Below are positions 8,090 through 63,968 of a stretch of DNA of 64,000 bases, one piece after another (within the stretch, counting starts at the first letter, position 1; each line of letters starts with the position of its first letter). The notes beneath the pieces were generated by a model. It was given only the letters and a program-made list of their open reading frames with translations. It made no database searches and was not told the DNA's origin. The stretch lies in assembly GCF_044647545.1 (NCBI RefSeq), contig NZ_CP172818.1. One strand, given 5' to 3'. The stretch is from Escherichia coli. Lineage in GTDB: Bacteria; Pseudomonadota; Gammaproteobacteria; Enterobacterales; Enterobacteriaceae. Position numbers and translations under genes: made by a program.

Positions 8090-8119
8090 AAGGGCGACAT
8101 GATGCGCCCTTTATTTTTT
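8090..8119. terminator. Rho-independent terminator between convergent mscK and ybaM
   Basis: Stem AAGGGCG ... CGCCCTT followed by TTTATTTTTT immediately after the mscK stop. Confidence 0.7.
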
Positions 8120-19333: not shown

Positions 19334-19351
19334 GTTATCGACAACCAGAAT

Positions 19352-25051: not shown

Positions 25052-25135
25052 ACACCGTCGCTTAAAGTGACGGCATAATAATAAAAAAATGAAATTCCTC
25101 TTTGACGGGCCAATAGCGATATTGGCCATTTTTTT
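25052..25135 (+). ncRNA. chiX: Hfq-dependent sRNA ChiX (MicM/SroB/RybC)
   Basis: ACACCGTCGCTTAAAGTGACGGCATAATAATAAAAAAATGAAATTCCTCTTTGACGGGCCAATAGCGATATTGGCCATTTTTTT recognised as ChiX; ends in hairpin GGCCAAT/ATTGGCC plus T-run; located between ybaK and ybaP as in K-12. Confidence 0.85.
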
Positions 25136-25928
25136 AGCGCAACATCTGCGGCAAATTCCCTTCTCCATACAGGTGTAGTGCACCAACCGCGACCACATAT
25201 CGCCCCGGCGGCATGGCGCGTAATTTGTCCCGCCAGGCGAGATTTCGCTGATGCATCAGCACATCGTACAGCGACTGACTGAACGTATTAGGCAGCGTTA
25301 TTTCATTATTTTGTGGCGGTGTATTCAGCCACCAGCTCATCATTTGTTGCAGCAACCGTGCGTTGGTGTGCCAGTGGGTCAGCGTATCGTCCAGCAGCGC
25401 CAGTCCGTTGTCAGGGAGCTGGAGCAACATGGCAATCTGGTTTTCTGCCCCTTCCAGTTCAATCACGGGTTTATGTTGTTGCTTCGCCGCCTGCAATAGC
25501 TGGTAATCGATACCGTATTCTGCCCGCAGCCCCAGTTTTTGTGCCTGCGTCGCCTGAAGAACCATCGCGATTTGCCACAGCGGTTGGGTAGAAAAGAGTG
25601 AGGTAGAAATGCCCATCTCCTGGCTAATGTGCTGCAGGTTTTGTAATTGCTCCTCGCTAATGCGCTCTTCCAGCGCCTCGCAGGCAGGCAAATTAGCAAA
25701 AGGCGTATCGCTGGTGGAAACATCCGCCTCGACGATCAGCGCATCGGCGTTTTTGAGCTTTTTGAGCAAACGGGTGGGCAGGGGAGCCATATCGTGGCTA
25801 CCCATATGAATACTGCCGAGCAGATGAAAATGGCGATTGCCGGGAAGAGAGATATCGATAGCAGGCCAGGTGTAATGATTACCGCGCAGCGCGGCCCAAA
25901 GCGTTTTTACCCGATACAACAGATCCAT
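25134..25928 (-). CDS. ybaP: TraB/GumN-family protein YbaP
   Basis: 264-aa ORF MDLLYRVKTLWAALRGNHYTWPAIDISLPGNRHFHLLGSIHMG. Confidence 0.92.
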   Translation of the reverse strand: MDLLYRVKTLWAALRGNHYTWPAIDISLPGNRHFHLLGSIHMGSHDMAPLPTRLLKKLKNADALIVEADVSTSDTPFANLPACEALEERISEEQLQNLQHISQEMGISTSLFSTQPLWQIAMVLQATQAQKLGLRAEYGIDYQLLQAAKQQHKPVIELEGAENQIAMLLQLPDNGLALLDDTLTHWHTNARLLQQMMSWWLNTPPQNNEITLPNTFSQSLYDVLMHQRNLAWRDKLRAMPPGRYVVAVGALHLYGEGNLPQMLR

Positions 25929-26089
25929 ACGACCTCCCTTTGTGAAATATCATGCTAGCGCGCGGGGAGGGATGGCGCAAATGGAGTTGTTGTCGCACTT
26001 GTGCACAGTGCTTGTGTGCATTACAATAATTAAACAATGGACAAGGAGATGAGAATGGAATGGCTCAAAAGAATAATATAAGGAGTTTT

Positions 26090-26347
26090 CGTGATCCTGC
26101 TGGCTGATTTTTTTTTCCATTCAACCCCACATCAAAAAATCCCTCTAAAATCCATACCACTTATCACAAAAGTGGACATCATTAATCCCCCCCCTTCTCT
26201 CCGTTTTCCCCCCCCCCCGAAACGAAAAAAAAAGTTTTGGAAAAAAAAAGAAATTTCCCCAAAAAAAAAAAAAAAAAAAAAAAAAAATAAAAAAGGGAAA
26301 AAAAAAAAGGAAAAAAAATTTTTTTAAAAAAAAAAAAAAAAAAAAAC
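26090..26347. other. Anomalous homopolymer-rich low-complexity tract (probable sequence/assembly artefact); not coding
   Basis: A runs longer than 25 nt, C runs of 8-10 nt and T runs; composition unlike any flanking E. coli sequence; the track ORFs here are poly-K and poly-F. Confidence 0.6.
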
Positions 26348-26379
26348 ATAGCTGTCGTATTGACGAGAAAGGTAAAACC

Positions 26380-26751
26380 ATGAAACAGGCAACAAGAAAA
26401 CCGACGACACCCGGAGATATTCTTCTCTATGAATATCTGGAACCGCTCGATTTGAAAATCAATGAGTTAGCAGAGTTACTGCATGTTCATCGTAATAGCG
26501 TCAGTGCACTGATCAATAATAATCGTAAACTCACCACTGAAATGGCATTCCGTCTGGCGAAAGTTTTTGATACCACAGTCGATTTTTGGCTAAACCTCCA
26601 GGCGGCAGTTGATCTTTGGGAAGTTGAAAACAACATGCGTACCCAGGAAGAATTGGGACGGATTGAAACAGTGGCTGAATATTTGGCACGCCGTGAAGAG
26701 CGTGCAAAAAAGGTCGCGTATATGCGCCACCCTAAAGCAGTGCATCCGTAA
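26380..26751 (+). CDS. ybaQ: XRE-family HTH protein YbaQ (HigA antitoxin-like)
   Basis: 123-aa ORF MKQATRKPTTPGDILLYEYLEPLDLKINELAELLHVHRNSVSALINNNRKLTTEMAFRLAKVFDTTVDFWLNLQAAVDLW; pattern typical of HigA-family HTH. Confidence 0.9.
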   Translation: MKQATRKPTTPGDILLYEYLEPLDLKINELAELLHVHRNSVSALINNNRKLTTEMAFRLAKVFDTTVDFWLNLQAAVDLWEVENNMRTQEELGRIETVAEYLARREERAKKVAYMRHPKAVHP

Positions 26752-26759
26752 TGATGTAC

Positions 26760-29264
26760 TTATTCCTTCGGTTTAAATCGCAGCAATCGGTTGGCGTTAC
26801 TCACTACGGTAATCGACGAGAGCGCCATTGCCGCTCCGGCAACCACCGGGTTAAGCAGCGTACCGGTGAACGGCCACAAAATACCGGCGGCGACCGGAAT
26901 ACCAATGCTGTTGTAGATAAACGCACCGAGCAGGTTCTGCTTCATATTGCGCAGCGTTGCGCGGGAAATCGCGAGCGCATCTGCAACACCCATCAGGCTA
27001 TGGCGCATCAGGGTAATCGCCGCGGTTTCAATGGCAACATCACTGCCGCCACCCATCGCAATACCGACATCCGCCTGAGCCAGCGCTGGCGCGTCGTTAA
27101 TGCCGTCGCCCACCATTGCCACCTGACGTCCTTCACTTTGCAGACGTTTGATCGCTTCGGCTTTACCGTCCGGTAGCACCCCGGCTATCACCTCATCAAT
27201 CCCTGCTTCTTTGGCGATCGCATTGGCGGTGGTTGGGTTATCCCCGGTTAGCATCACCAGACGATATCCCGCTTTATGCAGGCGTTGCAGCGCCGCCACG
27301 CTATCACTACGCAACGGATCGCGTACAGCCAGCAGGGCTACCGCTTTCCCGTCAACCGCCAGCAGCACAGGCGTTGCCCCTTGCGATGCCTGAGCTGAAA
27401 TATCTGCCTCAATCGCTTTAGTATCAACTTGCTGGTCATTTAACAGCGCCTGATTACCCAGCAATAACGCATGACCTTCAGCTTCACCGCTCACGCCCAG
27501 CCCGCGCAATGTGCGGAAACCGTTGACCTGCGGCAGCTGCATATCACCTGCTTTATCGAGGATCGCTCGTGCCAGCGGATGGCTGGAACCTTGCTCCAGT
27601 GCCGCCGCCAGACGCAATGCCTGCGCTTCATCAACATCAGCAAACGTTTTCACTGCGACAACCTGCGGCTTCCCTTCGGTCAGCGTCCCGGTTTTATCGA
27701 ACACGACGGTGTCGAGCGTACTGGCGCGTTGCAGCGCGTCAGCGTCCCGCACCAGCACGCCAAACTCAGCCGCCCGCCCGACGCCCGAAATAATCGACAT
27801 CGGCGTCGCCAGTCCCAGCGCACACGGACAGGCAATAATCAGCACCGTGGTGGCAATCACCAGGGTATAGACAATTTGCGGTGCCGGACCAAAGAAATAC
27901 CAGATTGCCGCACTGACAAGCGCAATAACCACTACTACCGGCACAAATACGGCTGAGATTTTATCCGCCAGTTGACCGATTTCTGGCTTGCTGCTCTGGG
28001 CCTGTCGCACCATGCGAATGATCCGTGACAGCGTAGTATGGCTGCCGACCGCACTGGCGCGAAACAGCACACTGCCGTCCTGTACCACTGTCCCGGCATG
28101 GACGCTATCGCCTTCGCCTTTTTGCTGCGGGATTGGTTCGCCCGTCAGCATCGCTTCATCCAGCCACGCTTCGCCCTGGGTAATTTCACCATCTACCGGC
28201 ACCCGATCACCCGTCGTCAGGCGCAGCAACATACCTGGCTGAACATCTGCCAGCGGCACGTTTTTTTCACCTTCGTTGGTGACCAGGCGCGCCGTCGGTG
28301 GGGTTAAATCGAGTAATTTCTCCAGCGCCTTAGAAGAACGCTGACGTGCGCGCGCTTCCAGCATATGACCGAGATTAATCAGACCGATAATCATCGCACT
28401 GGCTTCATAGTAAAGATGTCGCGCTTCCATCGGGAACCACTGCGGCCACAGGTTGACGCTCATTGAATAGAGCCACGCCACGCCCGTACCCAGCGCCACC
28501 AGCGTATCCATCGTCGCTGCACCGTTCAGCAGGCTTTTCCATGCGCTGCGGTAAAAATGGCCGCCGGCGAAAACCATTACCGCCAGGGTTATCAGGCCGA
28601 TAACCAACCACAGGCTGCGGTTGTCGGCGGTGACCATCATGTTATCGCCGATCATCCCCCAGACCATCACCGGGATACCCACCGCCAGTGCGACAATCGC
28701 CTGCCAGCGGAAGCGCTTCATCGTAGCGACGGCGGTTTCTTGCTGGCGCTCGCGGCGTTTAGCGTCATCTTCAATCGCTTCCGCGCCGTAGCCCGCTTTT
28801 TCCACCGCCTGCACTAAATCTTGTGGGGAGGCACTGCCCATCACCAGCGCAGTACGCTCCGCCAGGTTTACCCGTGCCTGAGTGACGCCCGGTACGCTTT
28901 GCAACGCATTTTGTACGCGGGTGACACAGCTGGCGCAGCTCATGCCGCTCAGCAGCAACTGCTGGCTGTCATCGTCATCGGCGGTCGCTGCCGGAAGCGC
29001 CTCAGAAACCGCTGTCAGTGCTTCCGACGGGATTGATGACTCCGCCAGCGGTTTAGCCTTTGGGTGGCTTACAGATGCGTCATAACCCGCTTGTTTGATG
29101 GTTTCGATCAGCTGTTCTGCACTGGCAGTCCCGGTAACGTGCGCTTCAGTGACAGACACATCCGCCTGCTCAACATCCGGGCGCTGTTCGAGACTTTCTT
29201 TCACGCGTTTAACGCAGTGACCGCAGGACAGGCCGTCCAGGGTCAGGTCGATAGTTTGTGACAT
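26760..29264 (-). CDS. copA: Cu(I)-exporting P1B-type ATPase CopA
   Basis: 834-aa ORF with two N-terminal GxxCxxC metal-binding domains (GLSCGHC, GMSCASC), CPC transmembrane motif and DKTGTLT phosphorylation site. Confidence 0.97.
29053..29064 (-). other. copA: copA programmed -1 frameshift site giving the CopA(Z) metallochaperone (slippery C CCA AAG, -1 frame GGC TAA)
   Basis: mRNA-sense CACCCAAAGGCTAAACCG at codons 67-72 of copA (plus-strand CTTTGGG at 29058..29064); -1 frame stop TAA lies immediately after the slip site. Confidence 0.75.
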
Positions 29265-32286: not shown

Positions 32287-32756
32287 TTAAAAGAAAAAAA
32301 GGCGATGACCGCACGGATAATCAGCGTTATCCCTTCTATCGCAATCACCTCAACATGCGTACCTGCACTGAGATCCTCGCTGGCGCTGACAGGCCATGAA
32401 CTGTCACCGACGCGCATATGACCACGCCCGTTGACCAGCGGAGATTCCAGAACAAAACGTCGGCCAATCAACTGCTGCCCGCGCTGGTTTAAATGACTGT
32501 CGCTGTGCTTTTGTTCGCGCACCCGCCGCGACAACCATTTCCACCACAGCCAGGCGGCGAGCAGCGTCAGGACGGCAAACATTACCCCTTGCCACTCCCA
32601 ACCCAGCGGCAGCAACCAGACCACCAGACCGGTAATCACCGCTGCCACGCCGCTCCACAACAGATAACCATTGCCGCCCAACATCTCGGCTGCCAGCAGC
32701 AAACCGCCGAGACTTAGCCAGAAAATATGTGGATGAACGACCATTAACTCCATCAT
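32271..32756 (-). CDS. ybbJ: NfeD-like inner membrane protein YbbJ (partner of QmcA)
   Basis: 161-aa ORF; start ATG overlaps the qmcA stop (ATGA); 3' end overlaps the cueR 3' end by 16 nt. Exact start not verified. Confidence 0.85.
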
Positions 32757-33670
32757 GGCTGAGTCCGTTTGTTGGCGCTGTCTTTCACCAGCTCGGCAAT
32801 CCCGGCAATCGACCCCATCAGGCTGCTGGCCTCTAATGGCATCATCACTACTTTGCTGTTACTGGACGAACCGATCTGCTGTAACGCTTCGGTGTATTTC
32901 TGTGCGACGAAGTAGTTCACCGCCTGAATATCACCGGAGGCAATGGCTTCAGATACCATTTTGGTGGCGCGGGCTTCTGCTTCGGCAGAACGTTCACGCG
33001 CTTCGGCCTGTAAGAATGCCGATTGACGTTCACCTTCCGCTTTCAGGATTTGCGACTGTTTTTCACCTTCAGCTTTGAGGATTTCCGCCTGACGGATCCC
33101 TTCCGCTTCAAGGATGTAAGCGCGTTTGGTACGTTCCGCTTTCATCTGCGCGTTCATTGAAGAGATAAGCTCTGCCGGTGGGCGCACGTCGCGAATTTCA
33201 ATACGGGTGACTTTAATCCCCCACGGGTTGGTGGCTTCATCGACAATACGCAGCAGGCGTGAGTTGATGCTGTCGCGCTGAGAGAGCATTTCGTCAAGTT
33301 CCATTGAACCCAGCACGGTACGGATGTTAGTCATGGTCAGGTTGATGATCGCCAGCTCCAGATTGCTGACTTCATAAGCCGCGCGCGGCGCGTCAATCAC
33401 CTGAATAAAGCACACGGCGTCGATGGTAACGTTGGCGTTATCTTTCGAGATAACTTCCTGGGAAGGGATATCGAGCACTTGCTCCATCATATTGATCTTG
33501 CGACCAATGCGATCCATAAACGGCACCACCAGACTGAGCCCCGGCTGTAACGTTTTGGTATAGCGACCAAAACGTTCTACTGTCCACTGATAGCCCTGCG
33601 GCACGATTTTGACGCCCGCGCCGACAATGACCAGCGCGACAAAAATGAGAATCGGGATAAAGATAAGCAT
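32753..33670 (-). CDS. qmcA: SPFH/stomatin-family membrane protein QmcA (YbbK)
   Basis: 305-aa [40 protein letters not shown]. Confidence 0.95.
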
Positions 33671-33815
33671 CGGAAAAACCTCCTGTTGTACCGTCCATAA
33701 TCAGCAAAATTGCTGCTTGATTAAACAAATTATACCTGATTACTGAAAGAGAGTTCCCCCTTATTCCTGCGAAGGATAAACTGTTTTTAGTAAAAATCAG
33801 AAAAAGGGAACAGTG

Positions 33816-34493
33816 ATGCAGGAAAATAGTCCTTTGCTTCAGCTACAAAACGTAGGATATCTGGCGGGTGATGCGAAGATTCTTAATAACATCAATTTTT
33901 CGCTGCGTGCTGGCGAATTTAAGTTAATTACCGGTCCTTCTGGTTGTGGCAAAAGTACGCTGCTAAAAATAGTTGCTTCATTGATCAGCCCAACCAGCGG
34001 AACGTTACTGTTTGAAGGTGAGGATGTCAGCACACTAAAGCCAGAAATCTACCGCCAGCAAGTCTCTTATTGCGCCCAGACGCCGACGCTGTTTGGCGAC
34101 ACGGTATACGATAATCTGATCTTTCCTTGGCAGATCCGTAACCAGCAGCCTGACCCAGCCATTTTTCTCGATTTTCTCGAACGCTTCGCCTTACCGGACA
34201 CCATTTTGACGAAGAATATCGCCGAGCTATCTGGTGGGGAAAAACAACGCATCTCATTGATTCGTAACCTGCAATTTATGCCGAAGGTTTTATTGCTGGA
34301 TGAAATAACCAGTGCGCTGGACGAAAGTAATAAACATAACGTTAATGAGATGATCCACCGTTATGTGCGCGAGCAAAATATTGCCGTGCTGTGGGTGACA
34401 CACGATAAAGACGAAATTAATCATGCGGATAAAGTGATTACACTGCAACCGCATGCCGGAGAAATGCAGGAAGCACGCTATGAACTCGCATAA
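33816..34493 (+). CDS. fetA: ABC transporter ATP-binding protein FetA (YbbL), iron export
   Basis: Track ORF 33813 (GTG) trimmed to ATG at 33816; Walker A GPSGCGKST and signature LSGGEKQR. Confidence 0.93.
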   Translation: MQENSPLLQLQNVGYLAGDAKILNNINFSLRAGEFKLITGPSGCGKSTLLKIVASLISPTSGTLLFEGEDVSTLKPEIYRQQVSYCAQTPTLFGDTVYDNLIFPWQIRNQQPDPAIFLDFLERFALPDTILTKNIAELSGGEKQRISLIRNLQFMPKVLLLDEITSALDESNKHNVNEMIHRYVREQNIAVLWVTHDKDEINHADKVITLQPHAGEMQEARYELA

Positions 34494-35259
34494 TATTACT
34501 AACGAATCATTAGCACTGGCATTGATGCTGGTGGTGGTGGCAATCTTAATTAGCCATAAAGAAAAACTGGCGCTGGAGAAAGATATTCTCTGGAGCGTCG
34601 GGCGCGCGATAATCCAGCTGATTATTGTCGGCTATGTGCTGAAGTATATTTTCAGCGTGGATGATGCCAGCCTGACATTATTGATGGTGTTATTTATCTG
34701 CTTTAATGCGGCGTGGAATGCGCAAAAACGCAGTAAATATATTGCTAAAGCTTTTATCTCATCGTTTATTGCCATTACGGTCGGGGCGGGAATTACCCTG
34801 GCGGTGCTGATTCTCTCAGGGTCGATTGAATTTATCCCGATGCAGGTGATCCCTATCGCCGGGATGATAGCCGGTAACGCCATGGTAGCGGTGGGGTTGT
34901 GTTACAACAATTTAGGGCAACGGGTGATTAGCGAACAGCAACAGATTCAGGAGAAACTGAGTCTTGGCGCGACGCCGAAACAGGCTTCAGCGATATTGAT
35001 TCGCGACAGTATTCGCGCTGCTTTAATTCCGACGGTCGATTCAGCAAAAACGGTAGGCTTAGTGAGTTTACCAGGAATGATGTCCGGGCTGATATTTGCC
35101 GGGATTGATCCGGTGAAGGCGATTAAATATCAGATTATGGTGACCTTTATGCTGCTCTCAACCGCCAGCCTGTCGACCATTATTGCCTGCTATTTAACCT
35201 ATCGTAAGTTTTACAATTCGCGCCACCAGTTGGTGGTGACGCAATTGAAGAAGAAATGA
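34480..35259 (+). CDS. fetB: ABC transporter permease FetB (YbbM)
   Basis: Track ORF 34453..35259 trimmed to ATG at 34480 (MNSHNITNESLALALMLVVVAIL); overlaps fetA 3' end by 14 nt. Confidence 0.9.
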   Translation: MNSHNITNESLALALMLVVVAILISHKEKLALEKDILWSVGRAIIQLIIVGYVLKYIFSVDDASLTLLMVLFICFNAAWNAQKRSKYIAKAFISSFIAITVGAGITLAVLILSGSIEFIPMQVIPIAGMIAGNAMVAVGLCYNNLGQRVISEQQQIQEKLSLGATPKQASAILIRDSIRAALIPTVDSAKTVGLVSLPGMMSGLIFAGIDPVKAIKYQIMVTFMLLSTASLSTIIACYLTYRKFYNSRHQLVVTQLKKK

Positions 35260-35265
35260 TGCAAT

Positions 35266-35291
35266 GCCGGATGCGCAGCATCGCATCCGGC
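35266..35291. repeat. REP-like palindromic hairpin between fetB and cnoX
   Basis: GCCGGATGCG-CAGCAT-CGCATCCGGC, perfect 10-bp stem. Confidence 0.7.
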
Positions 35292-35321
35292 GTTGTGGTT
35301 CATGTGCCGATCAACGGAAAC

Positions 35322-36218
<897 letters not shown>

Positions 36219-38316: not shown

Positions 38317-42182
<3,866 letters not shown>

Positions 42183-53976: not shown

Positions 53977-54021
53977 CTATTACCTTTAAAGCGGATGCGA
54001 TTTATATCGCATATTGACTAC

Positions 54022-62162: not shown

Positions 62163-62191
62163 TGATGGGCACCAGGCAATTGGCACATCTA

Positions 62192-62378
62192 GCCTGATGC
62201 GATGCTGGCGCGTCTTATCAGGTCTACAGGCGGTGTCGGAACGGTAGGCCGGATAAGGCGTTCACGCCGCATCCGGCAATCGGCACACCATGCCTGATGC
62301 GATGCTGGCGCATCTTATCAGGCCTACAGTCGGTGTTGGAACGGTAGGCCGGATAAGGCGTTCACGCCGCATGCGGCA
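62192..62378. repeat. BIME: two tandem copies of a REP-pair unit (about 87 bp each, period about 100 bp)
   Basis: Unit 1 at 62192..62278 and unit 2 at 62292..62378, each GCCTGATGCGATGCTGGCGC.TCTTATCAGG.CTACAG.CGGTGT.GGAACGGTAGGCCGGATAAGGCGTTCACGCCGCAT.CGGCA, differing at only a few positions. Confidence 0.85.
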
Positions 62379-62394
62379 AGAAAATGAGCATCAA

Positions 62395-63462: not shown

Positions 63463-63968
63463 GCCGCACCTCGCGGGTCCGGGTTTTCCAGCACTTCGTC
63501 AGTCTGGGCTTTGCGCCAGTCATTCAGACGCTGGTGCAGTTCTTTATCATGAGTCGCAAGAATTTGTGCTGCCAGTAACGCCGCGTTTGCCGCGCCAGCT
63601 TTACCAATCGCCAGCGTACCCACCGGAATGCCGCGCGGCATTTGTACGATGGAGTAGAGACTATCGACACCGCTCAGTGCGGCGCTCTGTACTGGCACGC
63701 CCAGCACTGGCACCAGCGTTTTGGTGGCAATCATGCCAGGCAGGTGCGCTGCGCCGCCTGCGCCCGCAATAATCACCTGATAACCGTTCTCTTCGGCGCT
63801 TTCGGCGAAGCTGAACAGTTTATCGGGGGTGCGGTGAGCAGAAACCACTTCAACGTGGTGCGGGACATTCAGGATTTCGAAGATTTCGGCGGCGAACTGC
63901 ATGGTAGCCCAGTCGCTTTTGGACCCCATCACGATGGCGACACGCGCCGGATTATTGCGGGAAGACAT
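63459..63968 (-). CDS. purE: N5-carboxyaminoimidazole ribonucleotide mutase
   Basis: Track ORF 63459..63995 trimmed to ATG at 63968 ([52 protein letters not shown]). Confidence 0.95.

Follow-up and report, generated by a model that had tools for sequence, protein, structure and literature searches.

A homopolymer-rich tract between ybaP and ybaQ in one Escherichia coli record: a corrupted copy of the higB-1 toxin gene and very probably a consensus-calling artefact

Does the block of A, C and T homopolymers that separates ybaP from ybaQ in a single Escherichia coli record represent DNA of the cell, or did it arise when the record was made? We addressed this question in the whole stretch of 64,000 nucleotides in which the block lies (hereafter the window, whose coordinates are used unless stated otherwise). 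The window sequence contains a tract dominated by runs of A, C and T from position 26096 to 26346, as the initial annotation had described, and between 26108 and 26346 we counted ten mononucleotide runs of at least 7 nt:

26108–26116, homopolymer run T9
26187–26194, homopolymer run C8
26208–26218, homopolymer run C11
26225–26233, homopolymer run A9
26241–26249, homopolymer run A9
26261–26287, homopolymer run A27
26298–26308, homopolymer run A11
26311–26318, homopolymer run A8
26319–26325, homopolymer run T7
26326–26346, homopolymer run A21

The C runs, given in the earlier description as 8–10 nt, measure 8 and 11 nt. When we computed, in 100-bp windows, how often a base repeats the one before it, the fraction reached 0.84 in the tract, compared with a window-wide mean of 0.263 (sd 0.052). 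Because the expected number of A runs of at least 21 nt in 64 kb is approximately 3e-9, the tract lies far beyond chance. The open reading frames that cross it, namely a poly-Lys frame on the + strand (26091–26327) and two poly-Phe frames on the – strand (26145–26381 and 26182–26349), had been regarded as compositional artefacts, and we agree: both types exist in the window, and neither product was found in a collection of 15 billion proteins. A search of NCBIfam with the 78-aa GTG ORF of the window matched no family.

The tract was not found in any of 5,426 complete E. coli genomes, in accordance with the earlier opinion that it is not a feature of E. coli chromosomes. Among these genomes, 1,266 matched only its first 115–135 nt, with 80–90% identity, and the matches were located in a toxin gene. 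An exact 48-mer from the tract was likewise absent from 100,044 species-representative genomes, which is a weak test as each species is represented by one genome. The 123-aa YbaQ protein encoded beside the tract corresponds to WP_400165133.1, which is present on exactly one public contig of 4,499,902 bp; the window therefore comes from a record that was actually deposited, and its peculiarity is confined to this one record.

We next considered what the tract would be in related strains. Over the 18 kb to its left, the window showed 99.9% identity to a group of complete E. coli genomes, strain ST648 among them; we take this lineage to be phylogroup F. As the lineage reference we used NZ_CP033850.1, which was aligned over all 64 kb of the window (a 70.5-kb reference region). 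In the closest relatives, ybaP and ybaQ are parted by a 303-bp gene, which is found in 1,265 of the 5,426 complete genomes overall and is annotated as a RelE/ParE-family toxin (WP_000057541.1). In Pfam, its native product matched HigB-like_toxin (PF05015, E = 3e-32, model positions 2–91 of 91), and in NCBIfam it gave RelE/YoeB matches, all of which were below threshold. The toxin gene that lies upstream of ybaQ in phylogroups B2 and F has been named higB-1; it is repressed by YbaQ, its promoter carries a YbaQ-binding motif, and ybaQ has been reported to be essential in strains that bear higB-1 (Rousset et al., bioRxiv 10.1101/2020.05.25.114553). In K-12, the spacer between ybaP and ybaQ is only 137 bp long and contains no toxin gene.

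The alignment with NZ_CP033850.1 showed that the tract is collinear, base for base and from end to end, with the 303-bp higB-1 gene, and that the flanks are 100% identical. The locus can accordingly be divided into the following features:

25134–25928, – strand: ybaP (TraB/GumN family), intact left neighbour; a 264-aa ORF, annotated as ybaP in NZ_CP033850.1
25929–26059, + strand: sequence upstream of higB-1, the expected site of the higB-1/ybaQ promoter and operator, from the lineage alignment
26060–26095, + strand: first 36 nt of higB-1 (12 codons, MAQKNNIRSFRD), error-free by alignment and translation
26096–26342, + strand: corrupted body of higB-1, corresponding to the homopolymer tract, with 62 substitutions, 19 deleted bases and 1 inserted base
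26060–26344, + strand: whole higB-1 remnant, 285 nt compared with 303 nt in the native gene, from the lineage alignment
26348–26379, + strand: higB-1/ybaQ spacer, error-free in the lineage and three-way alignments
26380–26751, + strand: ybaQ (HigA-family antitoxin/regulator), artificially extended to 123 aa, with 20 bp missing at 26721

No differences from the lineage reference were recorded in the ybaP stretch. We sought an intact ORF with a recognizable HigB-like domain in the higB-1 of the window and found none; the original frame reads MAQKNNIRSFRD and then continues into three internal stops and poly-Lys, and the positions of the native TAA stop (26342–26344) are occupied by AAA. Judged from this alignment, the tract is no new element but the ordinary higB-1 toxin gene in corrupted form. 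The initial annotation had assigned it to the ybaP–ybaQ intergenic region. It is not filler of a spacer, however, but a collinear, corrupted ORF at 26060–26344, since in the ST648-type lineage a toxin gene occupies this place. The suggestion that the tract may partly replace the ybaQ promoter region also fails. The promoter shared by higB-1 and ybaQ lies upstream of higB-1 (bioRxiv 10.1101/2020.05.25.114553), and the interval from 25929 to 26059 differs from the lineage only by the loss of 1 bp at 25990, exactly where blastn homology to K-12 ends.

The pattern of errors within the gene is directional. The first difference from native higB-1 occurs at 26096 and the last at 26342 (the T of the TAA stop), and from 26348 the sequence is again identical to that of the lineage. 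Identity to higB-1 in successive 25-bp segments was 1.00, 0.93, 0.96, 0.81, 0.89, 0.84, 0.61, 0.63, 0.63, 0.44, 0.62 and 0.60, and then 1.00; in other words, the error density climbs from left to right across the tract and ends abruptly. Of the 62 substitutions, 53 copy an adjacent native base, compared with an expectation of 27.8 ± 3.7 and a maximum of 41 in 2000 randomizations. Substitutions to A account for 51 of the 62 (17 each of G>A, C>A and T>A), the number of G residues is 21 compared with 56 in the native sequence, and 19 bases were deleted while 1 was inserted. In the A-rich 3΄ half, every one of the 31 non-A bases is in register with, and identical to, the native gene, while the same holds for only 49 of 97 A's, and the alignment score of this half corresponds to z = 7.8 against base shuffles and z = 7.4 against run-order shuffles. 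The 3΄ half thus appears to be the native gene with approximately half of its positions overwritten by A.

The predominance of A raises the possibility of targeted hypermutation, either of the adenine-directed DGR type or by deaminase editing, since 51 of 62 substitutions involving A superficially resemble the differences between a DGR template and its variable repeat. However, the direction is wrong for a DGR, because here other bases become A, and C-smears and 19 deletions are also present. A deaminase would be restricted to C>T and G>A changes, but in the tract C>A and T>A occur as often as G>A. When the window was compared with the reference, a second copy of the gene was not found, the sole repetition being a short one near 62.2 kb; the annotated genes of the syntenic reference, all of them ordinary chromosomal genes, include no reverse transcriptase. 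Because the substitution spectrum does not fit and no pair of template and variable repeats was found, we rejected hypermutation, to which we attach a practically negligible probability. The repeat just mentioned lies in the ybcF–purK spacer (62169–62379), where the sequence recurs at an offset of approximately 100 bp (111 bp aligned, 90% identity).

It could also be proposed that the tract is a real, hypermutable simple-sequence locus, which arose by decay of higB-1 or took its place and thereby inactivated the toxin. Natural inactivation of higB-1 is known, in that the CFT073 gene is truncated by a stop codon and most phylogroups lack higB-1 (bioRxiv 10.1101/2020.05.25.114553), and the sequence does stand in the public record. 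However, such a locus would have to combine 82 differences in approximately 250 bp with only two SNPs in approximately 63 kb of flanking DNA. It would also have to show a monotonic left-to-right gradient that ends at a boundary of reference homology, and we know of no mutational process that gives such a gradient. Runs such as A27 and A21 would be unstable in E. coli owing to replication slippage. Together with the absence of the tract from the 5,426 complete genomes, and with other garbled or missing stretches in the same record that stand in the same relation to K-12 (described below), these points make a real locus very improbable. If it were real, E. coli would possess a simple-sequence locus without precedent, and the toxin would have been inactivated by a new route.

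We then compared the remainder of the window with the lineage reference. Outside the tract, only two isolated SNPs were observed, at 28340 and 63725. The G at 28340 is the K-12 allele, and may therefore be a residue of a backbone sequence; the T at 63725 differs from both K-12 and the lineage, and thus represents either a true strain SNP or an error. The other differences form tight clusters of small indels, mostly deletions, which were located by the lineage alignment as follows:

8100–8105, deletion cluster, non-coding
15847, deletion cluster, non-coding
19343–19350, deletion cluster, non-coding
25990, 1-bp deletion, non-coding
26721, 20-bp deletion at the end of ybaQ
41043–41056, four inserted bases
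54013, 14-bp deletion, non-coding

Non-coding sequence makes up 8.6% of the region, and all seven clusters are located within it or at its margin. The deletion clusters at 8100–8105, 15847, 19343–19350, 25990 and 54013 measure 1–14 bp, and several of these small deletions fall in terminator hairpins (the loop of the mscK/rsmS terminator, the stem of the adk terminator and the T-run that follows the glxK terminator). The 20 bp lost at 26721 are exactly one of the segments that K-12 lacks, and with them ybaQ loses its stop codon, so that the frame extends to 123 aa; WP_400165133.1 is thus probably an artefactual protein, which has entered RefSeq and UniRef.

Two larger defects were also found. 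A second garbled tract at 40702–41031, which is G/A-rich and T-poor, provides 330 bp in place of the native 593-bp ybbP–mnmH spacer and makes ybbP read through to 957 aa. It begins at 40702, the first base past the end of blastn homology to K-12. At 32287–32299, a 13-bp A-rich filler (TTAAAAGAAAAAA) stands in place of a 2,560-bp lineage island that follows cueR and contains genes for hypothetical proteins and a YadA-family adhesin, and the filler alters the 3΄ end of ybbJ. Neither the second garbled tract nor the junction at 32287 was present in any of the 5,426 complete E. coli genomes. We considered that this junction could be a natural island-less allele and rejected the possibility: genomes that lack the island read TGATTAAGACGAGAC at this point, and the best full-length matches are 89–90% identical. 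An 11-mer, AACATAGCTGT, is common to the native sequences at the right parts of both garbled tracts (26347–26357 and 40954–40964); it is probably a coincidence, with a chance of approximately 0.09 by a rough estimate.

Comparison with K-12 accounted for the positions at which these defects fall. By blastn, nine lineage segments in the window have no counterpart in K-12 (57, 53, 75, 403, 20, 2560, 599, 20 and 30 bp), and every indel or garbling defect lies in eight of these nine. The sequence that does have homology to K-12, approximately 63 kb, departs from the lineage by the two SNPs only. The ninth, of 30 bp, is intact in the window at 62236–62265; it belongs to the ybcF–purK spacer and is the sole segment of the lineage, absent from K-12, that the window reproduces without error. 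Two segments, at positions 27635–27654 (20 bp) and 33220–35779 (2,560 bp) of the lineage reference, were removed to the exact base. For the defects at 54013 and 41032–41056, we predicted the lack of a K-12 counterpart before K-12 was examined, and both predictions held.

At the tract itself, the segment that K-12 lacks is the one of 403 bp, which extends over 25990–26373, and blastn homology to K-12 picks up again only at 26374. In a three-way alignment, we read the diverged K-12 spacer as homologous on its left side to the higB-1 promoter and on its right side to CATAGCTGTCGTATTGACGAGAAAGG. This alignment suggests that homology to a K-12-type backbone resumes at 26348 (from CATAGCTG onward), which is the abrupt right edge of the tract; because blastn resumes only at 26374, the position 26348 is our own reading of a diverged alignment. 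The same alignment suggests an insertion relative to K-12 from approximately 26037–26060 to 26347, ending exactly where the tract ends.

Sequence of K-12 type was also detected within the window. At 40995–41020, a 26-nt run (CATATCAAAACCGGTAACTCTCAACC) occurs in K-12 but nowhere in the 70.5-kb lineage reference, and it is followed, up to approximately 41060, by a base-by-base blend of K-12 and lineage sequence. This hybrid was not found in any complete E. coli genome. The K-12-type structure near mnmH is common to more than 3,000 genomes; the backbone can therefore be called only K-12-type. In addition, the 4.50-Mb contig is shorter than both K-12 (4.64 Mb) and the closest relatives (4.69–5.31 Mb), which is as expected if regions found only in the backbone were deleted and strain-specific islands were not recovered.

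We examined two other causes that could act across the window and rejected both. Coverage drop-outs biased by GC content would be expected at troughs of low GC, but most of the 34 troughs (101-bp GC <0.38) are without a defect, as are all of those at 0.24–0.27 outside the missing island. Errors in hairpins or terminators were not retained as the primary cause, because the absence of a K-12 counterpart explains all of the sites, including those not in hairpins, together with their exact boundaries.

A further alternative is that the tract is the low-quality tail of a read, either Sanger-like or from a poor long read, which a de novo or gap-closed assembly, made without a reference genome, incorporated where two contigs meet. 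A one-directional gradient, smearing by neighbouring bases, an excess of deletions and an abrupt recovery all fit such a tail, and Sanger compressions occur in hairpins, where several of the small defects are found. However, this explanation does not account for the confinement of every defect in 64 kb to segments without a K-12 counterpart, the removal of two segments to the exact base, the K-12-only sequence blended into the window, the replacement of a 2.5-kb island by 13 bp or a contig approximately 0.5 Mb shorter than those of relatives. We therefore consider a read tail unlikely. Contig or read ends, which the initial annotation had proposed to check, explain the defects less well; their positions follow the segments missing from a K-12-type reference, and one of them contains blended K-12 sequence.

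The earlier view of the tract as a probable artefact is borne out. We regard it as highly probable that the tract is an artefact of consensus calling, guided by a K-12-type backbone that lacks higB-1, and that it does not represent DNA in the cell. Both the type of pipeline and the mechanism of column voting set out below are inferred by us. The isolate belongs to the ST648-type lineage (phylogroup F), which has higB-1 between ybaP and ybaQ, and its reads appear to have been placed on a K-12-type reference from which a consensus was called, with no de novo assembly. Sequence shared with the reference would be converted cleanly to the alleles of the isolate, whereas sequence absent from the reference would have to be rebuilt as an insertion, and it is this rebuilding that would have failed. 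Short segments would then acquire a few deletions, segments of 20 bp would be dropped and the 2.5-kb island would vanish, while the higB-1 insertion of approximately 310 bp would be rebuilt with errors that become more frequent the farther they lie from its left anchor. If the inserted bases of noisy reads were put to a vote in each column and the reads were not realigned to one another, the reads would drift out of register, and each column would return whichever base was commonest locally or set as default, mostly A but C where the sequence is C-rich. The smear would stop when the alignment re-anchors on the reference at 26348.

To evaluate this mechanism, we simulated left-justified column voting with indel noise of 1–3%. 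With 1.5% indels, the first error appeared approximately 65–76 nt into the insertion, compared with approximately 60 nt observed, and the gradient was reproduced. The simulated fraction of bases identical to the previous base was 0.53–0.67 (0.58 observed). However, the simulated A fraction was 0.35–0.43 compared with 0.49 observed, so that the excess of A was not reproduced, and neither were the near-loss of G and the 18-bp shortening. The simulated consensuses were only marginally closer to the tract (0.77–0.78) than the true gene was (0.75). Because the simulation missed the A excess, the loss of G and the shortening, the detailed mechanism is incomplete; candidates for an additional base-specific bias are a default or tie-break base, the behaviour of a neural polisher, or one dominant poor read.

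Biologically, the tract is of no matter, and its value is that of a data-quality warning on one public E. coli record. This 4.50-Mb record, which appears to be a reference-guided consensus, silently lacks strain-specific islands, and it contains garbled insertions and at least one artefactual protein. An analysis of the pangenome or of gene essentiality would score higB-1 as absent in this record, which matters because ybaQ has been reported to be essential in higB-1 strains. Such records may be flagged by their pattern of accuracy, in that they are clean wherever a common reference has a counterpart and damaged only elsewhere.

Finally, the tract can be compared with known systems. The higB-1/ybaQ locus of phylogroups B2 and F shares with the window its position between ybaP and ybaQ, its flanks, the first 12 codons and the antitoxin, but the higB-1 of the window differs in that it is unreadable, with three stops followed by poly-Lys. 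On our reading, this is a property of the record and not of the strain, which almost certainly carries an ordinary higB-1/ybaQ toxin–antitoxin pair. The contingency loci of Neisseria, Haemophilus and Campylobacter also have long mononucleotide runs next to or inside a gene. However, a contingency locus consists of a single tract, conserved in position across strains and variable in length, whereas the present tract comprises ten different runs that occur in no other genome and together trace a known gene; recurrence with length polymorphism at the same locus, as is characteristic of contingency loci, was observed in none of the 5,426 complete E. coli genomes. With the decaying tail of a Sanger or long read, the tract shares a one-directional loss of accuracy, miscalls toward neighbouring bases and under-calling, but such a tail predicts neither boundaries at breaks in K-12 homology nor backbone sequence in the sister tract, and both were observed. 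With genomes built by reference-guided consensus, the record has several features in common: defects occur only in segments that the backbone lacks while shared sequence is clean, sequence found only in the backbone is cleanly deleted, bases of the backbone appear blended with those of the isolate, a large island has been lost, and the overall length comes close to that of the backbone but falls short of it. In such genomes an insertion is usually missing or replaced by a run of N, whereas here an insertion of approximately 310 bp was partly rebuilt, and the tract is distinguished from them by its graded homopolymer smear and its strong bias toward A.
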